This document shows, one piece after another, positions 5,544 through 35,606 of a DNA stretch of 64,000 nucleotides; the first letter of the stretch is position 1, and every line of letters starts with the position of its first letter. This stretch comes from a virus, in IMG/VR virus record IMGVR_UViG_3300005095_000173, positions 1 through 64,000 of that record; one strand, written 5' to 3'. Below the pieces are notes generated by a model. It saw only the letters and a list, made by a program, of their open reading frames with translations. It did not search any database and had not been told where the DNA came from. The translations under genes and the position numbers were made by a program.

Positions 5544-6092
5544 ATGAAGATCGTTTTGATTTCTGGATATATTGGAAGCGGTAAGACAACATTTGCTAAT
5601 TATCTAAAGGATTATCTTAATAAAAAAGGATGTTATACGGAAAAATTAGCTTTTGCAGATAAAGTAAAACAAATTGCTAAGGAAGACTTTTTATGGGACG
5701 GCAAGAAAGATAAGAAGGGTCGTAGACTTCTTCAAGTAATTGGAACCGAAGCTGGACGAGAATACGACCCAGATATTTGGGTGAAGTATATGCTAAAGGC
5801 GATTAGAGATTTACCAATTGATCCTTCTGTTGTAGTTATTGATGATTGGAGATTTCCAAACGAATATTATTCATTAGCTTCTTATTATGATGTATATACT
5901 GTAAGAGTATTAGGTAAAGAACGTATTTCTGATCACCCATCAGAGACGTCTTTAGATAACTCTGACATTCCTTATTTTATGCAGATACCAAATACCTTTA
6001 CTAGCCCTGAAGAAGATTTTGATGCTCCTGCTGAGAAGTTATACGAAATTCTTTGTGATTATTGGGCAAACCTTGACAAAGAAGTGGAATAG
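5544..6092 (+). CDS. deoxynucleoside monophosphate kinase
   Basis: SGYIGSGKTT, FADKVK, RRLLQVIGTE, DWRFPNE, HPSE. Confidence 0.9.
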   Translation: MKIVLISGYIGSGKTTFANYLKDYLNKKGCYTEKLAFADKVKQIAKEDFLWDGKKDKKGRRLLQVIGTEAGREYDPDIWVKYMLKAIRDLPIDPSVVVIDDWRFPNEYYSLASYYDVYTVRVLGKERISDHPSETSLDNSDIPYFMQIPNTFTSPEEDFDAPAEKLYEILCDYWANLDKEVE

Positions 6093-6101
6093 TGGTATAA
6101 T
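6073..6101 (+). promoter_or_regulatory. sigma70/sigmaA consensus promoter for tRNA-Pro
   Basis: TTGACA-17nt-TATAAT with extended TG. Confidence 0.9.
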
Positions 6102-6124
6102 GCTCCCAAGTTAGGGAGCATATT

Positions 6125-6199
6125 CGGGAAGTAGCTCAGCCTGGACAGAGCACTCGCCTTGGACGTGAGGGGTCGCAGGTTCAAGTCCTGCCTTCCCGA
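6125..6199 (+). tRNA. tRNA-Pro(TGG)
   Basis: CGGGAAG/CTTCCCG acceptor, D arm GCTC/GAGC, loop CTTGGAC, T arm GCAGG-TTCAAGT-CCTGC, A73. Confidence 0.92.
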
Positions 6200-6201
6200 C
6201 C

Positions 6202-6230
6202 TTGACAAAATAAATATTCTGTGGTATAAT
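6202..6230 (+). promoter_or_regulatory. sigma70/sigmaA consensus promoter for tRNA-Ile
   Basis: TTGACA-17nt-TATAAT, TGTGG before -10; starts 3 nt after the tRNA-Pro discriminator. Confidence 0.9.
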
Positions 6231-6240
6231 GCTTGTACAC

Positions 6241-6313
6241 TGGCTGGTAGCTCAATGGTTAGAGCAACGGTCTTATAAGCCGTAGGTTGTGGGTTCGACT
6301 CCCACCCAGCCAA
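6241..6313 (+). tRNA. tRNA-Ile(TAT)
   Basis: TGGCTGG/CCAGCCA acceptor, anticodon arm ACGGT-CTTATAA-GCCGT, T arm GTGGG-TTCGACT-CCCAC, A73. Confidence 0.9.
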
Positions 6314-6348
6314 CCTTGAAATAAAATCTTATATAAGAGAGGATAAAT

Positions 6349-8424: not shown

Positions 8425-9224
8425 TGATAAAGTATGAAATCTATCATGCAGATAATTTAGAGTGGCTACATGAATTTAGTGATAAGATAAAAGTAAATCT
8501 CATTTATATTGACCCTCCATTCAACACAGGAAAATCATTCTTTAGAAATGGAATTGGATATTCAGATAAAGGAGATAGAATAAACCCAATACTTATTTCA
8601 AAAGGAAAAATTACATCATTTGGAGGGTACTCTGAATATTTAGATGGAATTTATACTCGATTGCTATATTCAAAAGAAATTCTTGATAAATATGGAAGTA
8701 TATTTATACATGCCGATTATCGTGCAATTCATTATATAAAAGTAATTGCTGACTTTATATTTGGGATTGATAATTTTATGAATGAGATTATATGGGCCTA
8801 TGATTACGGTGGAAGACCTAAAAAGTACTGGCCAAGAAAGCATGATAATATTTTATGGTATGTAAAGAATAAAAAACATTATACATTCAACTACAATGAA
8901 ATGGATAGAATTCCTTATATGGCTCCTGGACTTGTAGGTAAAGAAAAAGCCGCTAAAGGAAAAACTCCAACTGATGTATGGTGGCACACTATTGTGCCTA
9001 CTAATAGTAAAGAAAAAACAGGTTATCCAACCCAAAAGCCTTTGGGAATTTTAGAAAGAATAGTGAGAGTACATTCTAATCCTGGAGACACTTTACTTGA
9101 TTTCTATGCTGGTAGTGGAAGTTTTGGAGAAGCGGCATTAAAGCACGGGAGAAATGTAATCTTAGTTGACAATAATCCACAAGCAATTGAGATAATGAAG
9201 AGGAGATTAAGTAAGTATGGATAG
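8421..9224 (+). CDS. DNA methyltransferase (N6A/N4C, beta class)
   Basis: LIYIDPPFN catalytic motif before LDFYAGSG SAM motif; YPTQKP. Confidence 0.92.
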   Translation: MMIKYEIYHADNLEWLHEFSDKIKVNLIYIDPPFNTGKSFFRNGIGYSDKGDRINPILISKGKITSFGGYSEYLDGIYTRLLYSKEILDKYGSIFIHADYRAIHYIKVIADFIFGIDNFMNEIIWAYDYGGRPKKYWPRKHDNILWYVKNKKHYTFNYNEMDRIPYMAPGLVGKEKAAKGKTPTDVWWHTIVPTNSKEKTGYPTQKPLGILERIVRVHSNPGDTLLDFYAGSGSFGEAALKHGRNVILVDNNPQAIEIMKRRLSKYG

Positions 9225-9417
9225 TTGTACCAAGCGCGAGTTAGAAATTCTAAAAGGAATTATTCAGGGAATGATTAATGGAAAGTATGAAAAGAACCTT
9301 TTACTGTTATTACAAATAGTCAACGGAATTCTAAGAGAAGGAGAAGATGGAACTTCTGGAATTCCAGAATTAAAAACAATGCCTGTTGATTCAATGTGGA
9401 GTGGTTATTATGATTAA
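9217..9417 (+). CDS. hypothetical protein
   Basis: 66-aa ORF overlapping the MTase stop. Confidence 0.5.
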   Translation: MDSCTKRELEILKGIIQGMINGKYEKNLLLLLQIVNGILREGEDGTSGIPELKTMPVDSMWSGYYD

Positions 9418-9494
9418 GGGGCAGAATTGGTCAGTCAGACAACTAAAGCCAAAGAGCTGTTGTCTGAACGAGGGTTCGATCCCCTCCTGCTCCA
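9418..9494 (+). ncRNA. tRNA-like RNA resembling an isolated tmRNA TLD (Ala identity G3:U70, A73)
   Basis: GGGGCAG/CTGCTCC-A acceptor, stemless D-loop, 9-bp helix TCAGACAAC/GTTGTCTGA, T arm GAGGG-TTCGATC-CCCTC. Confidence 0.75.
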
Positions 9495-9522
9495 TTGGTA
9501 ATATAACAAATAGGAGGTATGT

Positions 9523-9720
9523 GTGAAACTATTCTGTGACAATTGTGGAAAAAATGTTAGAGTTGATTTGTTATCAAAACTAAATTGGGTTATTTGTGAT
9601 GATATTAGCTCTGCCGAAGTTGAATTAATATACTCTTGTAGTAGATGTGGTAAATTTATTAAAAGTACAAATGTCGTGTTAGATTTAGATGAGACTTATA
9701 CGTATGTAGATCTTGAATAA
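9523..9720 (+). CDS. small Zn-ribbon protein
   Basis: CDNC...CSRC; AGGAGG RBS. Confidence 0.65.
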   Translation: MKLFCDNCGKNVRVDLLSKLNWVICDDISSAEVELIYSCSRCGKFIKSTNVVLDLDETYTYVDLE

Positions 9721-9734
9721 AGGAGGAATATAAA

Positions 9735-9983
9735 ATGGGTGTTTACGCACGAGTTGAAGAGCTAGAAAAGGAAATTGCTCGAAATAAAGATTTAGTTTAT
9801 GCTGTAATTGATAAGTTGACTTATATAACTATTTGGGATAAAGATGTTGCACTTGCAGAGGTAGCAGTAGAAGAAAAACGTGAGAAAGAATCTCCACTGG
9901 CGGAACATGTTTTAACGTTAACTAAAAATCTAGAGGAGATCAATAAACATTTAGCAGATTTACTAAATAGTATTGACCTATGA
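9735..9983 (+). CDS. hypothetical protein
   Basis: AGGAGG RBS. Confidence 0.65.
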   Translation: MGVYARVEELEKEIARNKDLVYAVIDKLTYITIWDKDVALAEVAVEEKREKESPLAEHVLTLTKNLEEINKHLADLLNSIDL

Positions 9984-11436: not shown

Positions 11437-11679
11437 ATGAAAGCATATTTCATCGGCGGGATATATGATAGAGAAATTAAAGAGATAAATAAACATTACA
11501 CATCAATACAAATTCCAATATCTACATTAGACAGAATAACATATTATTATATCGGAAGGGAAGTAACAAATAAAGGAGAAATAGTAGAAATCTACTCAAT
11601 ATACAAATACCCTCCAGAAGATATACTAGAAGAAGTAAGAAGAGAAATATTATACAGAGGCTATCTATCTTTATGGTAG
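11437..11679 (+). CDS. hypothetical protein
   Basis: GAGG RBS; FIGG.YD start typical of small phage proteins. Confidence 0.6.
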   Translation: MKAYFIGGIYDREIKEINKHYTSIQIPISTLDRITYYYIGREVTNKGEIVEIYSIYKYPPEDILEEVRREILYRGYLSLW

Positions 11680-11701
11680 ATAGATAGCCTCTTTTTTATT
11701 T
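11656..11701 (+). terminator. intrinsic terminator closing the left + strand operon
   Basis: AGAGGCTATCTATCT / AGATAGATAGCCTCT 15-bp stem plus T tract. Confidence 0.85.
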
Positions 11702-17844: not shown

Positions 17845-18498
17845 ATGGGTACTATTGCAGTTGTAACACTGCCTAATGGTAATGAATTAATTGAAACTTT
17901 AGACGGATATAAATCTTACTTGGGTAATCTTTTACTTGATTATAAAGACGACCCTTATTGTCTTTACCACGTATTAGAACGTAATGACCCACAATTCCCT
18001 ATTGAATTTGTGGATTATTGGTACAAAATCGAAGACGGGAAAGTCTATATTAAATATCATGGAAATGATTCTTGGCACAAATTAAAACGCATTAAAACTA
18101 AATTTGTTAGACGATGCCCAATTTGTGGCGAAGAAAGATATTATATGTTCTTTAATGGTGACATTTATACTTATATTGGTTGTGAACATCATGTTAGCAG
18201 CAATGTTAAAAAGGACGAGTCCATTTTTATTTATTCTGATGATGAACCACGATTACAAGTTGTAAAAGCAATTAGTGATTCTGATTATTTTTATGCAACA
18301 TGTCCGTACTGCAAAACAGAAAATAAAGTAGCGCGTGATTATGAATGGGAGTTTGAATTAATTAAAACTTGTGAACATTTTAATTCTGTAGAATACTATG
18401 GAGAATATATTAAACATGATAGTGGATATTTCTTTGGCTCTTATATCAAAAATGTTTGGATTACTTTCAAAGAGGTTGAAAAGGAGGAAGAAAAATGA
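17845..18498 (+). CDS. protein with two CPxC...CEH Zn-binding repeats
   Basis: CPICGE..GCEH and CPYCKT..TCEHF. Confidence 0.7.
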   Translation: MGTIAVVTLPNGNELIETLDGYKSYLGNLLLDYKDDPYCLYHVLERNDPQFPIEFVDYWYKIEDGKVYIKYHGNDSWHKLKRIKTKFVRRCPICGEERYYMFFNGDIYTYIGCEHHVSSNVKKDESIFIYSDDEPRLQVVKAISDSDYFYATCPYCKTENKVARDYEWEFELIKTCEHFNSVEYYGEYIKHDSGYFFGSYIKNVWITFKEVEKEEEK

Positions 18499-19394
18499 AC
18501 GAATTTGTTCACATTGGTACAGACCCTGAATTCTTTGTCATTAGTACTGGAGAATTTGATTATATTCCTGAAGGTTATTCTATCCCGCCCGTTGTTTATC
18601 GCATTGAAAACCAACTTAAACTGAAGCGATTAATTGGTATTCGCCATTACGTGTTTTGGGAAAAGAACGGTTATATTATTCATGAAGATGGTGCAGCGTT
18701 TGAACTTACTACGCCGCCGTTTAATGATATTATTGAGATGAAGAATTCAGTATTAGGAATTTTGGGGGAAGCAGAAAAAGATCTCGGTCTTAAATTCACT
18801 ATTATTCCAGCGGCAAAATTTATGATTCCAGATAAATTCAAGAATAATGAAAGTTTTATTACTGCATGTGAATTCGGATGCAACCCTGATATTGAGGGTT
18901 GCATGCCTGATATTAATCTTACTACTCGTACTATTAGAGCAGATGATATTCCTTATCGATTTGGTGGGGGACATATTACAATTGAGTTTAAGGAAGAACA
19001 CAAAAACCTGTTTGTTAATTATCCTGACATTTTCAGCCAATTCATGGCTATTAATGTGGGTATTCCCATGATTGCATTTACTCGGTTTCCTCACCTTCTT
19101 AAAGAGCGTGCAAAATATTATGGTACTCCGTGCAAGTATCGTGATAATAAACTTCATAAAAACTTATTTGAATACCGAACACCATCTAATGAATGGCTTC
19201 TATTTACAGATGAGCAATTAATGACAATTCAGAAAGGTATTAATACTGCAATTAAAATGTTTACTTCAAGGGATGAAACAGCGAGGAGTTTTCTTTCTCG
19301 CTATCTCCCTGAAGCGAAAGCAATTATTCTTAGCTCTGATGTTCGTGCTGCTAAATTAGTAATGAAAGAACTTACACAATACTTTGTGGAGTAA
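18495..19394 (+). CDS. phiEco32-like COOH-NH2 ligase type 2
   Basis: IGTDPEFF, HEDGAAFE, FGCNPD, RFGGGHI, R..YGTP..YR, EYRTPSNEW. Confidence 0.88.
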   Translation: MNEFVHIGTDPEFFVISTGEFDYIPEGYSIPPVVYRIENQLKLKRLIGIRHYVFWEKNGYIIHEDGAAFELTTPPFNDIIEMKNSVLGILGEAEKDLGLKFTIIPAAKFMIPDKFKNNESFITACEFGCNPDIEGCMPDINLTTRTIRADDIPYRFGGGHITIEFKEEHKNLFVNYPDIFSQFMAINVGIPMIAFTRFPHLLKERAKYYGTPCKYRDNKLHKNLFEYRTPSNEWLLFTDEQLMTIQKGINTAIKMFTSRDETARSFLSRYLPEAKAIILSSDVRAAKLVMKELTQYFVE

Positions 19395-19396
19395 AA

Positions 19397-20398
19397 ATGG
19401 CCAACACTTATAAGTTTGGGACGATGGGAATTGAAATTGAATTTACTGATATTCCGCAAAATATTATTATGTGTACGCATGATGCGTCCACAGAATACAT
19501 ATTACAATTTGACGGACGAAGTTCCCAACGTGTTGGTGGTGAATTAGTATCTCCCGTTCTTCAAAATTATTCTCACATGTATGAATGGGTTACTAAAAGC
19601 GTCCGACGATTATTGCAATTGGGGGAAAATATTTATGATGAAAGTGGACGTGCTTCTATCCACTTTCATATTGGTTATCCTGCTACTAATATCAGTCTAT
19701 TGAAAAAGACGCTAAAATGGGCGGTCAAAGTTGACCCCCATCTCATGCGTCTTGGTGGAATGGGAAGCACTCCACGCGGTTATATTAATGATTTTCTTTA
19801 CTATCGTCCTATTATTAGCCCTCCCGTTGTTCAAACTCGCAACGGATACGGAAGAGTATTTATCGTAGATGATATTATGAAAATTAAAACGGAGCGGGGA
19901 TTTTTTACCCGCTATGGCGATAGTTATAATGTAAGTGGACGTTATGTAGCACAACGATATGTTGGTATTAATTTTTATTCAATTATTAGAAAAGGTACAA
20001 TTGAGTTTCGTCACTTTAATAAACTACTAAATGTTCCGCTTATCGGTGCGATAGCGGAATTTCTTTCACGATCTATTATTACTATCATTGATTCATCTGA
20101 AGCGAAAATTGATAAAATTAATTCATTTGAATCAGCATTAGACTTTTCTGGTATTGATAATAAAAAGAAAGATCTTCTTCTGGTATATTATTATAAGTCA
20201 AAATTTAGCATGGAAGAATATTACAAAGTAGCTGGAAAGAATTTATTATGCCACCTGGCAGCACGTGGTAATCTTCCTACTTATTATGAGAACACACGCT
20301 ATTGCCCGCCAGCAATTGACGAAGATTATGTTGATTATCCTTTTATTAGTGATACCCACTCTGGAGAATTTAATATTAATATTGTTTCGCGGAGGTAA
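19397..20398 (+). CDS. amidoligase (COOH-NH2 ligase superfamily)
   Basis: GIEIEF, HDAS, ELVSPVL, SIHFHIG, RYVGIN, GTIEFRHF. Confidence 0.85.
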   Translation: MANTYKFGTMGIEIEFTDIPQNIIMCTHDASTEYILQFDGRSSQRVGGELVSPVLQNYSHMYEWVTKSVRRLLQLGENIYDESGRASIHFHIGYPATNISLLKKTLKWAVKVDPHLMRLGGMGSTPRGYINDFLYYRPIISPPVVQTRNGYGRVFIVDDIMKIKTERGFFTRYGDSYNVSGRYVAQRYVGINFYSIIRKGTIEFRHFNKLLNVPLIGAIAEFLSRSIITIIDSSEAKIDKINSFESALDFSGIDNKKKDLLLVYYYKSKFSMEEYYKVAGKNLLCHLAARGNLPTYYENTRYCPPAIDEDYVDYPFISDTHSGEFNINIVSRR

Positions 20399-20401
20399 TC
20401 T

Positions 20402-21505
20402 ATGTGTCAATTGACGTTGGTAAAAACTGTGAATGCTGATCTTACTAAATTTATTAGCATTAATGCAGCAGTTATTAATCCATTGAAAGCGAAAATGGAT
20501 GAAAAGACTGGCCATGTTGATGGTTATGGTCACTTTATTAATCGCTCCAGTCTGTGGAAAACAGAATTTTCTGGCCATGAAATTAATTTTAGTTCGGTTA
20601 AATTCACAAATGATCCTGCTATTATTCATGTTCGACGTGTTTCTCGTGGTATTATTAGCAAAGAGAATGCGCATCCATTTGAATTTGATTATTTTGTAGC
20701 AGCACATAACGGTACATTATCTGGTGGTTTTCTTGACGTTAAAGAAACCACTACTGATAGTTATCAATTCTTTAAACATGCTAATGATCTAATTAAAGAA
20801 AATCCAGAGCTGTCTGTATTAGAAGCATTCAAGAAGTCTTATGATGAAATTGACGGCGGAAAGTTCGCCTTCTTAGTGTTTGATAAACGTGACAATGTTT
20901 ATTATGTTATTCGCGGAAAGGCCACCTTATTCGTTTCTTATATTAAGAGTAAAAATGACAAAACAGTTGGTATTATTGTTAATACAGAACGTGATAGTTT
21001 ATTGATGAATCTTTATCTTATTCGGGCACATTACGGGTATGCTTATACAGAGCCAGAATTATTGAGTGATAATACTATTTATAAACTTAATGAAGAGGAA
21101 ATTAAACTGGAAAAGGTACCTGGGATTGAAATTAAACAAAAAACTGTTACTTATCATACTGTAACACAAGCCACTACTACTGTTTACGATAACACAACGA
21201 CTTATGAATACAAATCTGGAAAACTCAAGCGCGACGCATTGCAGATTTTCTTTAATACGAAGGTAGTAGGTTATCAGTTGACCGCAAGAGACGCTTATGC
21301 CGCATATTTGTATGCTATTATTAATGGATACGAAGACCCAATTAAACTTCTTCCAGAATTAGAAGCAAAGATTGCTAATAAAACATATGATCCTATTATT
21401 CCGTATGCACTGCAATTCTTTATGGAAGACTTTGAACGCGAACCTGGTTATAAAGAGTTTATTGATAATATTACTATCAAACCGAAAGGAGGAAAAGAAA
21501 AATGA
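20402..21505 (+). CDS. class II (Ntn) glutamine amidotransferase
   Basis: N-terminal MC, DGYG, HVR, NAHPF, AHNGTL, TDS. Confidence 0.88.
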   Translation: MCQLTLVKTVNADLTKFISINAAVINPLKAKMDEKTGHVDGYGHFINRSSLWKTEFSGHEINFSSVKFTNDPAIIHVRRVSRGIISKENAHPFEFDYFVAAHNGTLSGGFLDVKETTTDSYQFFKHANDLIKENPELSVLEAFKKSYDEIDGGKFAFLVFDKRDNVYYVIRGKATLFVSYIKSKNDKTVGIIVNTERDSLLMNLYLIRAHYGYAYTEPELLSDNTIYKLNEEEIKLEKVPGIEIKQKTVTYHTVTQATTTVYDNTTTYEYKSGKLKRDALQIFFNTKVVGYQLTARDAYAAYLYAIINGYEDPIKLLPELEAKIANKTYDPIIPYALQFFMEDFEREPGYKEFIDNITIKPKGGKEK

Positions 21506-22272
21506 TCTATTACATTACTACGCTTCCGAAGTACTTCCCTGTTTCGGATATTATCCGAAACGCATTAGTAGAAAAGACTGGAAAACGAATTCTTATTTCT
21601 CGTAATCCAAAAGCGATTAGTCGATTCGGTAAGATTATCTTGAATGTTGGAACCACTTATCCTTTCGTTAAAGATCTAGCCATTAATTCTAAAGTAATTA
21701 ATCTTCCCATTACCTGCGCTATTAGTGGGGATAAAAATCGTACTTATCGCATGTTCAAAGATTATGTTAATGCTATTGAAATTAAGTATGGGTTTCCGAC
21801 TAATTACCCAGTAGTAAAACGCGAAGACATTAATTCTTTTCATGGTAAGGGAATTAAACTTTGCAATTCCTCAGAAGACTTTGGGGAATTTCCTGGGTAC
21901 TATTCTGATTTCATTAATTTTAATGCGGAGTACCGCGTATTTATCGCTGTATATAACGGAGAATTAAAACTTCAACGTGTATTTAGGAAAGATTTAAAGC
22001 CTGAGTTTGAAGGGCAATTTGTTCCTAAAAATGCAGAACATTGCAAATATTATCACATCTCTAAACCTAAAATTAGCGCTCTTCCTGATTTCGTTGACGG
22101 TATTATTCAAGCAATGGTGAATAAAGGTATTTATAATTTCTATTTCGGTTTAGATGTAGGTCGTGTAGAAAGAGAATTAATTCTCATCGAAACTAACTCA
22201 GCTCCAGGAATGAATAGTATTAGTATTGACGCGTTTACTAATTTGTTGATCGAGGAGGTTCTCTATGGGTAA
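21502..22272 (+). CDS. ATP-grasp ligase (RimK-like)
   Basis: DK, YPVVKR..HGKGI, EYRV, FGLDV, IETNSAPG. Confidence 0.85.
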   Translation: MIYYITTLPKYFPVSDIIRNALVEKTGKRILISRNPKAISRFGKIILNVGTTYPFVKDLAINSKVINLPITCAISGDKNRTYRMFKDYVNAIEIKYGFPTNYPVVKREDINSFHGKGIKLCNSSEDFGEFPGYYSDFINFNAEYRVFIAVYNGELKLQRVFRKDLKPEFEGQFVPKNAEHCKYYHISKPKISALPDFVDGIIQAMVNKGIYNFYFGLDVGRVERELILIETNSAPGMNSISIDAFTNLLIEEVLYG

Positions 22273-26726: not shown

Positions 26727-28943
26727 ATGCGACATCTGTTTCTTCTTGCTGGAGAACCTGCTGTTGGAAAATCTTCTTGGATTAAAGAAAACGCACTTGA
26801 GACTTTTACACTTTCAGCTGATCAAATTCGATTAATGATGGAAGGGCCGCGAGTAAGTCCTGATGGTGGCCGTTATATTTCCCAGAAGAATGATAAAAAA
26901 GTTTGGGAATTATTAATAAGTATTTTAGAAGAACGAATGAAACGTGGAGAAACTGTATTCATTGACGCAACGCATTCTCGCGCTCGTTCTATTAATCGTT
27001 ATCGTAAATTAGCTAAAAAATATCGTTATCGAGTAACAGTTATTAACTTTCATGGGCGTAAAACTATTGATCAACTACTTGAAGATAATAATACACGTGG
27101 TTACCGAGCCGTTCCTGAAAAGGTTATTTATAATATTTATCACCGACTAGAAACAATGGAGTTTCCTGGTTGGGTAAATGTAATTACTCCAGAAGAATAT
27201 AATGACGATATTAGACACGACTGGACCGATAGATTCGATCATATTGCTGTTATTGGTGATATTCATGGAAATTATTATACTCTACTTAAACTTATAGAAC
27301 AAATGCAAAAAGAACTCACAGGGGAAACCGCATGGGTGTTTCTTGGTGATTATTTTGATCGTGGAAAATTTAATGCTGAAGTCTTCAGATTTATGCAAAA
27401 ATTTATTGATAATAACTTTGTTATTCCTTTGACTGGTAACCATGATTTTAAATGGTTACCCAGGTATGAGGAGTTTATTAATGGAAAGTTTGAAGGTCGT
27501 CGTCCCCCGCAACACACTGTAAATACTTTTATCCAATTCAAAAAAGCTGGGATTACTGTAAAAGAAGTAAAGAATTTTTATAATAAATTGGCACAATTAG
27601 TATTTGTTAAATTTGGAAGGGACTATTATGTTATGACTCATGGAGGTATTCCTATTCTTCCTTCTATTTATAGTACTACTGAAGACTTTATTTTTGGTGT
27701 AGGTACTTATGAAGATTCTGAATTAGTTGATGAAACCTTTTCTGAAAAGTGGAACAGCAAATATCTTGATTATTGTTTCTTTAGTATCCACGGGCACCGT
27801 AATATTTTTGGTGTTGATATTCATAATACTAAGTTTACTTATAATCTTAATGGAGATGCGGAATATTTAGGTGGAGAACTTCGTGGTATTATTATTCATA
27901 AGCACGGTACCATTAACGAATTTCGTCAGAAAGGACTAAATCCAATGTACGCAAGTAAGAAAAGAAAGTCCAACGAAGAGATTACTATTGATAATATATT
28001 AGATAAAATGACAGAACACAACTTCGTTAAAGTGAAGGATCTTGGAAACAATACTTATGCTATTAATTTTACCAACAAAGCATTTAGGAAAAAGAAGTGG
28101 GACGACCTTACTGTTAAAGCGCGTGGTTTGTTTATTGCCAAAGACGAAAATGGCAATAATTTTGTATTAGCACGTAGCTATGAAAAGTTTTTCAATCTTA
28201 ATGAACGAGAAGAGACCAAGCAGCGTAACCTTGTATTAGCAGAATACCCCGCCGTTGCTTATAAAAAATATAATGGTTTCCTTGGATTACTTTCTGTTGA
28301 TCCACGAACAAATGAATTTTTTATCACTACAAAAGGTAGCAACAAGGGTGACTATGTTGATATGTTTAAGGAAGTTATCTCTCCGTATCTAACTGATGAG
28401 TTAAAGAATTTCTTATCTAAATCGAACACTACTATGGTATTTGAAGTTATACATAAAAACGATCCTCACATTGTTGATTATGGTGGAAACAATTTTGTTG
28501 TACTTCTTGATATTGTCTTTAATGAATTAAAAGAACGAAAATTTAAGTACAGTAATCTTGTTGGTATTGGAAAGAAGTTTGGATTTAATGTAAAAGAAAT
28601 TTATTCAGAAATCAACTCTTATGATGAATTAGTAAATCTTATTGATGAGTTACATAGTTTTGATATTATGACTAATGAAGGTATCGAAGGCGTTGTGGTA
28701 GAATTTACTGATGGATTCAAAGTAAAAATTAAAAGTAACTGGTATATTTTCTGGAAAATCTGGCGTGGTCGAAGATACTTCATTGATAAGCTTAATGGAG
28801 ACAAAGGTAAAATTAACCAGTTTAAAGAATCTTTACACTCAGGTGAGGATTTTATTGTGTTGGACTTTATGCTTAATGCAGACATTGATTTGAAAGAGAC
28901 GGATATTATTTCCATTCGTAAAATGATACTTGAGGAAATATAG
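26727..28943 (+). CDS. fused polynucleotide kinase - metallophosphoesterase - Rnl1-type RNA ligase
   Basis: GEPAVGKS/DAT kinase; GDIHG, GDYFDRG, GNHD, HGG, HGH; ARGLF, EKFFN, KYNG, EGVV, KIK ligase motifs. Confidence 0.92.
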   Translation: MRHLFLLAGEPAVGKSSWIKENALETFTLSADQIRLMMEGPRVSPDGGRYISQKNDKKVWELLISILEERMKRGETVFIDATHSRARSINRYRKLAKKYRYRVTVINFHGRKTIDQLLEDNNTRGYRAVPEKVIYNIYHRLETMEFPGWVNVITPEEYNDDIRHDWTDRFDHIAVIGDIHGNYYTLLKLIEQMQKELTGETAWVFLGDYFDRGKFNAEVFRFMQKFIDNNFVIPLTGNHDFKWLPRYEEFINGKFEGRRPPQHTVNTFIQFKKAGITVKEVKNFYNKLAQLVFVKFGRDYYVMTHGGIPILPSIYSTTEDFIFGVGTYEDSELVDETFSEKWNSKYLDYCFFSIHGHRNIFGVDIHNTKFTYNLNGDAEYLGGELRGIIIHKHGTINEFRQKGLNPMYASKKRKSNEEITIDNILDKMTEHNFVKVKDLGNNTYAINFTNKAFRKKKWDDLTVKARGLFIAKDENGNNFVLARSYEKFFNLNEREETKQRNLVLAEYPAVAYKKYNGFLGLLSVDPRTNEFFITTKGSNKGDYVDMFKEVISPYLTDELKNFLSKSNTTMVFEVIHKNDPHIVDYGGNNFVVLLDIVFNELKERKFKYSNLVGIGKKFGFNVKEIYSEINSYDELVNLIDELHSFDIMTNEGIEGVVVEFTDGFKVKIKSNWYIFWKIWRGRRYFIDKLNGDKGKINQFKESLHSGEDFIVLDFMLNADIDLKETDIISIRKMILEEI

Positions 28944-35154: not shown

Positions 35155-35606
35155 TCCTCCTCATCAGGTTTAGGACATACTCGCTTAGCAATATTAATTA
35201 CTCCATTTGTTAATCTTTCTTCTAATTCAGATAAACTACCGAATTCATGTTGTACGCCACCTGGTGGGTTTGATAACCAGGTAAACACATAAGACAATGC
35301 CACATTTCCTTCAACAGTAAGTGGGTCATAACTCTTTCCGTAATAGTCATTTGTTTGGTAAATTCCCTGTTCAAGAATGTCCCATAACTTTCTTGCATAC
35401 CATTCTAATACTGCTTTCTTAAGTGTGTCATTCAACGGTAAGTCATCAATGCTACTGTAAACATTATTTAGTTCTTCTCCCTCAGCAAATTTCAACGCCT
35501 TCTTCAATACCTCTGGAGAGTATACAGAACCTAAAGTTTTCACTAACTCATCTTCAGGAATTTGATACTTCAATCGGTTGAAAATGGATTTCTTACTCAT
35601 TACCAT
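35148..35606 (-). CDS. hypothetical protein
   Basis: coupled ORF, 152 aa. Confidence 0.7.
   Translation of the reverse strand: MVMSKKSIFNRLKYQIPEDELVKTLGSVYSPEVLKKALKFAEGEELNNVYSSIDDLPLNDTLKKAVLEWYARKLWDILEQGIYQTNDYYGKSYDPLTVEGNVALSYVFTWLSNPPGGVQHEFGSLSELEERLTNGVINIAKRVCPKPDEEDW

Follow-up and report, generated by a model that had tools for sequence, protein, structure and literature searches.

A candidate 77-nt gene for a tmRNA reduced to its tRNA-like domain in an uncultivated phage, and its relatives in viral and metagenome contigs

Bacteria rely mainly on trans-translation for ribosome rescue and quality control. The locus described here raises the question of whether a phage carries a gene for a tmRNA that consists of the tRNA-like domain (TLD) only and, if so, what such an RNA would do in the infected cell. 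The window, by which we mean the whole 64,000-nt stretch of DNA analysed, has 34% G+C and belongs to a complete virus record of 76,785 bp with direct terminal repeats. A sequence-only reading had singled out an element in it that looked like a stand-alone TLD without an mRNA-like domain. We conclude with high confidence that this element is a real gene for a TLD-only (CDS-less) tmRNA. Its parts and the features around it are collected in Table 1.

Table 1. The mini-tmRNA gene, its structural parts and neighbouring features in the window.
Feature	Position	Strand	Basis
Mini-tmRNA gene, CDS-less (TLD-only), 77 nt before CCA addition	9418..9494	+	fold, RF00023 end-to-end match, model R1
Acceptor, 5′ strand GGGGCAG, with a G3:U pair (equivalent of G3:U70, the alanine identity pair)	9418..9424	+	
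D-loop substitute AAUUGGUCAG, 10 unpaired nt	9425..9434	+	fold; RF00023 alignment
P2a-like helix, 5′ strand, 9 bp	9435..9443	+	fold, RF00023 alignment, family covariation
Cap in place of the whole mRNA-like domain, 15 nt	9444..9458	+	fold
P2a-like helix, 3′ strand	9459..9467	+	fold, RF00023 alignment, family covariation
AC junction and T arm GAGGG-UUCGAUC-CCCUC	9468..9486	+	fold, RF00023 alignment
Acceptor 3′ strand CUGCUCC and discriminator A73 (9494)	9487..9494	+	
Upstream 66-aa ORF, no known family; stop abuts the first base of the RNA	9217..9417	+	
Downstream 65-aa ORF, weak sub-threshold zinc-ribbon matches	9523..9720	+	
Two perfect sigma-70 promoters, TTGACA-17-TATAAT with TG, 12/12	6073..6230	+	
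Strong intrinsic terminator, 15-bp stem and T run	11656..11692	+	

The minimum free energy structure computed with RNAfold is exactly the tRNA-like fold, present as one dominant structure of −32.4 kcal/mol, while 200 dinucleotide shuffles of the element gave −20.6 ± 3.1 kcal/mol (z −3.78) and none of them folded as well. Sequence and fold agree on the acceptor of seven pairs (GGGGCAG/CUGCUCC, the third being G:U), on A73 and on the canonical T arm, whose 5-bp stem carries a loop that fits the T-loop consensus. The 10-nt GG-containing D-loop without D-stem, followed by a 9-bp helix, had likewise been read from the sequence and is present in this structure; it offers the GG for the elbow contact, allows no D stem and has A8 where tRNA has U8. 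The helix had further been described as capped by 15 nt, which holds for the size of the cap but not for its form, since it is no plain loop and refolds into a UAA bulge, three base pairs (AGC/GCU) and a CAAAGA hexaloop. The element is also set off by composition, with 53% G+C against 32% in its flanks. Its gene does not encode CCA, the trailer being UUG, and neither does any of the five tRNA genes of the phage.

In a genome-wide search, the Rfam model of one-piece bacterial tmRNA (SsrA, RF00023) matched at 9418-9497 over its full length (model positions 1-374) with 41.2 bits and an E-value of 1.4e-16; in a second search the score was 32.7 bits (E 2.8e-12). RF00023 ranked first among all members of its clan. 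The tmRNA resemblance thus appears as an end-to-end match at 33-41 bits, which lies below the gathering cut-off of 47 bits. The alignment matches the acceptor with its alanine identity, the GA..GG D-loop substitute (AAUUGGUCAG against the tmRNA consensus GAucuGGaUUCGAC), P2a, the GGAC-type junction and the T arm. It deletes the 303 central positions that hold the pseudoknots and the tag reading frame, and puts 10 nt in their place. Whereas one-piece tmRNA has pseudoknot PK1, a resume codon, a tag ORF with its stop and PK2-4, none of these is present in the element: PK1-PK4 are missing from the alignment, and the helix strands are just 15 nt apart, a stretch in which we found no resume codon, tag ORF or stop. 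The absence of an mRNA-like domain, and with it of a tag ORF and an anticodon loop, was therefore read correctly from the sequence, and tag templating is impossible. The element is a tRNA-like domain plus P2a, in which a short hairpin takes the place of PK1, tag ORF and PK2-4. At the junction it has GUCAGAC and GAAC where the tmRNA consensus has UUCGAC and GGAC, a minority variant within the family described below, and by this departure its contacts with SmpB may differ.

Other detectors gave little. The tRNA model RF00005 scored the element at 25 bits, below its cut-off of 29 bits and lower than RF00023, and Rfam at gathering thresholds reported five tRNAs in the window and nothing else. Two tools named as checks in the sequence-only reading returned nothing in its favour: ARAGORN called five tRNAs in the window but neither the element nor a tag under default or mitochondrial settings (lowering the threshold to 80% yielded only an undefined “tRNA-???” there), and the mitochondrial tmRNA model RF02544 had no match at E-values up to 10. 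The RF00023 E-value of 1.4e-16, together with the local rise in G+C, argues that the element is real and no chance match.

BLAST searches of the element against isolated phages matched its 3′ half only, and 8 of the 15 records are annotated as tmRNA at that place. The noted resemblance of the 3′ end to tmRNA 3′ ends is hence borne out by the 3′ ends of annotated phage tmRNAs. Those matched tmRNAs that were examined are full-length, one-piece or permuted, and have tag peptides according to ARAGORN. In Chryseobacterium phage MA9V-3, the crAss-like phage cr114_1 and Cellulophaga phage Calle_1, the 3′ ends are 86-89% identical to the element over about 32-35 nt; however, these are tmRNAs of 360-440 nt with tag peptides called by ARAGORN, against 77 nt here. 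Searches for close relatives of the locus itself returned no match for an exact 23-mer from the 3′ end in viral contigs, and none for positions 9200-9750 by BLAST against isolated phages. A pattern on the GGUCAGUCAG D-loop matched only one further locus (L054) and tRNAs, and 34 loci with relatives of the neighbouring DNA methylase contained ordinary tRNAs only and no such element.

Relatives of the RNA were found by three pattern scans of viral and metagenome contigs, which together yielded at least 194 distinct elements of 60-90 nt at no fewer than 243 loci. The first pattern, tmRNA-type 5′ and 3′ ends 30-60 nt apart, matched at least 118 viral loci, where by a rough estimate a handful of chance matches is expected. 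The second was acceptor-blind, constraining the junctions and the T arm and leaving the acceptor free, and matched at least 120 viral loci; the element itself fails this pattern, whose statistics describe the core of the family. A metagenome scan with the element's own acceptor returned 55 loci with 47 more distinct members. Most first-pattern matches fold into the same three-helix shape. A separate set of 84-88-nt first-pattern matches (L017, L023, L030, L048, L090 and L104 in viral contigs, and most of L353-L472) carries the tmRNA 3′ segment GCUAAGCAUGUAG or a similar one. Rather than mini-tmRNAs, these are att-site copies or the 3′ portions of full-length tmRNAs, and a census of the family by this pattern must filter them out.

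A covariance model built from the element alone (R1) gave 89 matched places in 99 of the 118 first-pattern loci and the window. In the resulting alignment 92.9% of the cells are paired, against 45-56% when the partners are slid, and all nine pairs of the 9-bp helix show compensatory changes; homologs with covariation in this helix, for which the sequence-only reading had called, thus exist. Because the R1 alignment is fitted to the model, we checked it with RNAalifold on a plain, unfitted MAFFT alignment of 12 members, from which the three helices were recovered with compensatory changes in 10 of 16 pairs. MAFFT alignments move the 5′ ends by 1-2 nt, as the length of the D-loop varies, and the single-sequence covariance model was used in their place.

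In the family the alanine identity set is invariant: all 82 distinct acceptor-blind matches listed that have a recognisable acceptor possess G1:C72, G2:C71, G3:U70 and A73. Acceptor pairs 4-6 vary among them by compensatory change, and CCA is encoded in 21, where about 1/64 would be expected by chance. Inside the helix, the motif A-R-R-R-C-Y occurs in 111 of the 194 listed members (33 expected from shuffles), most commonly as AAAGCC, the form found in the element, and is followed by a short hairpin with varied tetraloop-like caps. Given these varied caps, an inner-loop anticodon was rejected. We also considered the UAA behind the helix as a tag of zero length with an immediate stop, and dropped this as a feature of the family, as a U precedes the motif in only 61 of the 111 members (about 55%) and in DS6A not at all.

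In bacterial genomes, the acceptor-constrained pattern matched, among the matches listed, almost only 3′ parts of full-length tmRNAs, mostly of Actinomycetota. A single convincing mini form is among them, which says little about the distribution in prophages. As far as these listed matches can show, mini-tmRNAs appear to be mainly a phage feature. Within family-bearing contigs we found no protein neighbour common to the family. About 20 distinct elements lie just downstream of a prohead-protease gene (e.g. L162:2776-3933) and about as many immediately upstream of a major-capsid gene (e.g. L135:2405-3565), inside the late head operon; others are found in other places. A tRNA gene lies within 3 kb of 35 of the 194 listed distinct elements. 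With no shared neighbour protein and few tRNA genes nearby, the family RNA seems to use host factors. Comparison of all family-bearing loci with the window by tblastx gave no synteny, and none of them is related to this phage.

TLD-only RNAs have precedents, in which respect the sequence-only reading, which knew of mitochondrial ones, was right about the concept but incomplete. Hudson, Lau and Williams list “Mycobacterium phage DS6A (TLD only)” (PMC4131195), and in the tmRNA database paper of 2025 DS6A stands for the phages among CDS-less forms, the others being from mitochondria and plastids (PMC11915505). We located this gene, which is unannotated in the GenBank record, at 28478-28557 of JN698994.1 (L292:679-758), in the gap between gp33 and gp34, the DNA polymerase III gene; with model R1 this 80-nt gene reaches 42.4 bits (E 1e-11), and its parts come in the same order. 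The DS6A RNA (tmRNA Website tmID 11587) resembles the element in being phage-encoded, about 80 nt long and possessed of both acceptor strands in one molecule. Common to the two are G3:U70, A73, a GG D-loop substitute, a P2a-like helix, a capped hairpin, a T arm and an inner A-rich motif followed by CC (GAAAACC in DS6A, UAAAGCC in the element), and neither gene encodes CCA. They differ in the junction (GGUCGAC/GCAC in DS6A, GUCAGAC/GAAC in the element) and in their background, DS6A being an actinophage of 70% G+C against 34% in our window; the phages and their hosts are unrelated. The kind is therefore already known from DS6A, and the element is a further member of it. In our literature search we found no wider description of such phage RNAs, DS6A being the only phage example cited.

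The organellar CDS-less tmRNAs of jakobid and oomycete mitochondria (RF02544) and of Mallomonadaceae plastids (PMC11915505) embody the same concept, lacking a tag reading frame, but are of separate origin and have an organelle-targeted SmpB as partner; the failure of RF02544 to match the element is where the mitochondrial parallel ends. Closer in design are laboratory TLD fragments. Crystal structures show SmpB bound to a fragment of T. thermophilus tmRNA made of the 5′ 25 nt, UUCG and the 3′ 34 nt, and template-free polyalanine synthesis, without mRNA, has been obtained in vitro from a TLD fragment together with SmpB (PMC3929946). These constructs have nearly the same design as the element but are engineered, whereas the helix of the element is longer and interrupted, with a conserved inner motif.

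The phage is distant from all isolated phages; its best protein match among them, that of the kinase-phosphatase-ligase fusion described below, has 35% identity, and an ORF of the capsid region has a single match, to one distant uncultured phage. It represents a new AT-rich lineage with RNA-repair genes. Its strong AGGAGG ribosome-binding sites, along with extended −10 promoters and tRNA genes that lack CCA, suggest a host of the Bacillota type; a query of bacterial genomes with the endolysin found no relative. We found no SmpB gene in the phage. The whole 76,785-bp record, moreover, contains no full tmRNA or other tmRNA-like piece, which extends to the entire genome the earlier observation that no second tag-coding piece lies near the element.

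The two promoters, at 6073 and 6202, directly precede tRNA-Pro(UGG) and then a tRNA-Ile with the unusual anticodon UAU (window 6073-6315), and together with these tRNA genes head the early + strand operon that holds the element and probably ends at the terminator. The element sits among small, closely spaced + strand genes and begins, as had been noticed, right after a stop codon: the TAA of the 66-aa ORF (9415-9417) abuts its first G, so that cleavage by RNase P would end the mRNA of that cistron. The 65-aa ORF that follows has its own Shine-Dalgarno sequence 17 nt past the RNA. A promoter-like site at 9386-9414 was discarded, as it agrees at 9 of 12 positions and such sites are no commoner here than in shuffled sequence.

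How might the RNA act? We favour, with confidence a little better than even, a competition with host tmRNA that proceeds through host AlaRS, SmpB and EF-Tu. The RNA would be transcribed within the early operon from the promoters at 6073 and 6202 up to the terminator at 11692. Host RNase P would free its 5′ end, and a tRNA-processing nuclease, perhaps RNase Z, its 3′ end. A host enzyme would then add CCA, host AlaRS would charge the RNA with alanine, and host SmpB, expected as the partner because the phage encodes none, would bind it along with EF-Tu. The absence of a resume codon means that there is no tag template, and the RNA would therefore compete with host tmRNA for SmpB and stalled ribosomes, lowering SsrA tagging during infection in a dominant-negative manner. 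Such an SmpB-sponge or anti-trans-translation role has already been proposed in print for the DS6A RNA (PMC4131195, PMC11915505). According to these two papers, a molecule similar to that of DS6A strongly inhibits E. coli tmRNA, whether chargeable or not (Mao et al. 2009), and the explanation offered there is that it does so perhaps by titrating SmpB. Two considerations temper this picture. The published inhibition is reported to need no chargeability, yet the identity set is kept in 82 of 82 members, a hint that the RNA may do more on the ribosome than titrate SmpB. Further, other phages carry full tmRNAs with tags, so that phages do not uniformly gain from blocking trans-translation.

The first of these considerations leads to the strongest alternative, a productive rescue without tag. 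Here the alanine-charged TLD would enter stalled ribosomes with host SmpB and add one or several alanines without a template, after which alternative factors would release the chain, leaving recycled ribosomes and phage proteins free of the SsrA tag. The invariant alanine identity set and the frequent CCA point to selection for charging, which SmpB titration does not need, and polyalanine synthesis by a TLD fragment with SmpB provides a biochemical model (PMC3929946). The RNA-repair genes of the phage (Pnkp-phosphatase-Rnl, DUF2828/vWA) moreover suggest RNA-cleaving host defences, which would leave stalled ribosomes. No release mechanism is encoded by the phage, however; only some 55% of members open their inner loop with a stop codon, which DS6A lacks, and the sole in vivo report, cited in PMC4131195 and PMC11915505, is one of tmRNA inhibition. 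We therefore regard this alternative as unlikely. Equally doubtful is its fuller version, in which the RNA would be a charged, ribosome-active, template-free alanine donor, and tag-less rescue or short Ala-tailing would replace SsrA tagging on broken mRNAs, jointly with the RNA-repair genes, against RNA-cleaving defences; the 82 of 82 identity sets and the in vitro activity (PMC3929946) keep it under consideration.

The position of the element suggests another reading, in which the fold would merely punctuate mRNA by directing RNase P and RNase Z cuts between cistrons of the early transcript, and the freed RNA would have no function. Its location directly behind a stop codon and 17 nt ahead of the next Shine-Dalgarno sequence would fit, as would the roughly 20 family elements by prohead-protease genes and the similar number by major-capsid genes, where differential mRNA stability would help. 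RNase P and RNase Z require neither G3:U70, nor A73, nor an encoded CCA, however, while the first two are invariant and the third is enriched in the family, and conservation of the P2a helix and of the AARRCC inner motif exceeds the needs of a cleavage signal. We consider mRNA punctuation alone very improbable.

About as improbable is that the RNA serves as a decoy for host factors other than SmpB, such as defence nucleases directed against tmRNA or tRNA, RNase R, or sensors with SmpB-like domains. There are defence systems with SmpB-like domains that are predicted to bind tmRNA-type RNAs (PMC11090510), a phage anti-CRISPR acts via t(m)RNA fragments and RNase R (PMC11662646), and this phage invests in RNA repair; but these points are circumstantial, no conserved neighbour protein ties the family to defence, and the invariant G3:U70 is left unexplained.

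Least probable of all, and largely refuted, is a decaying or D-armless tRNA-Ala, which would share G3:U70 and A73, both also identity elements of tRNA-Ala, and the 25 bits of RF00005, but is contradicted by the lack of a D stem, of an Ala anticodon and of a 7-nt loop to hold it (the cap with its UAA bulge and a CAAAGA loop on 3 bp stands there), by A8 in place of U8, by the higher score of RF00023, by the negative ARAGORN results at default and mitochondrial settings, and by the family covariation, which indicates selection on the mini-tmRNA shape itself.

If the competition with host tmRNA that we favour occurs, a phage gene would block or rewire trans-translation with an RNA of 77 nt, a compact tool for host takeover. 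Our scans indicate that TLD-only genes are common in uncultivated phages, against the single phage example in the cited papers. Standard annotation misses the family, as ARAGORN overlaps only 13 of the 194 listed elements, mostly with spurious calls, and the Rfam cut-off excludes them. The strictly kept alanine identity set raises the question of charging, which separates models of a sponge from those of a ribosome-active RNA.

Some other genes in the window drew our attention. The RNA-repair gene at 26727-28943 (+) encodes a 738-aa fusion of polynucleotide kinase (AAA_33), metallophosphatase and T4-type RNA ligase 1, a complete tRNA-repair enzyme with 35% identity to the versions of Staphylococcus Herelleviridae and Alicyclobacillus phages. 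At 40513-42779 (−), between tRNA-Arg(UCU) and tRNA-Asn/tRNA-Thr, lies the gene of a 492-aa DUF2828 and DUF7788/vWA protein (PHROG “RNA-binding protein”), possibly Ro60-like, which may be a second module of RNA repair or surveillance. A cluster at 18495-22272 (+) with matches, in part weak, to COOH-NH2 ligase, amidoligase, a class-II glutamine amidotransferase-like protein and ATP-grasp (R2K) recalls phage systems of base hypermodification or peptide ligation. Lastly, in a 592-aa ORF at 35600-37378 (−), thymidylate-synthase-like segments flank an HNH endonuclease domain (residues ~250-416), which may be an insertion of the homing-endonuclease or intein type.
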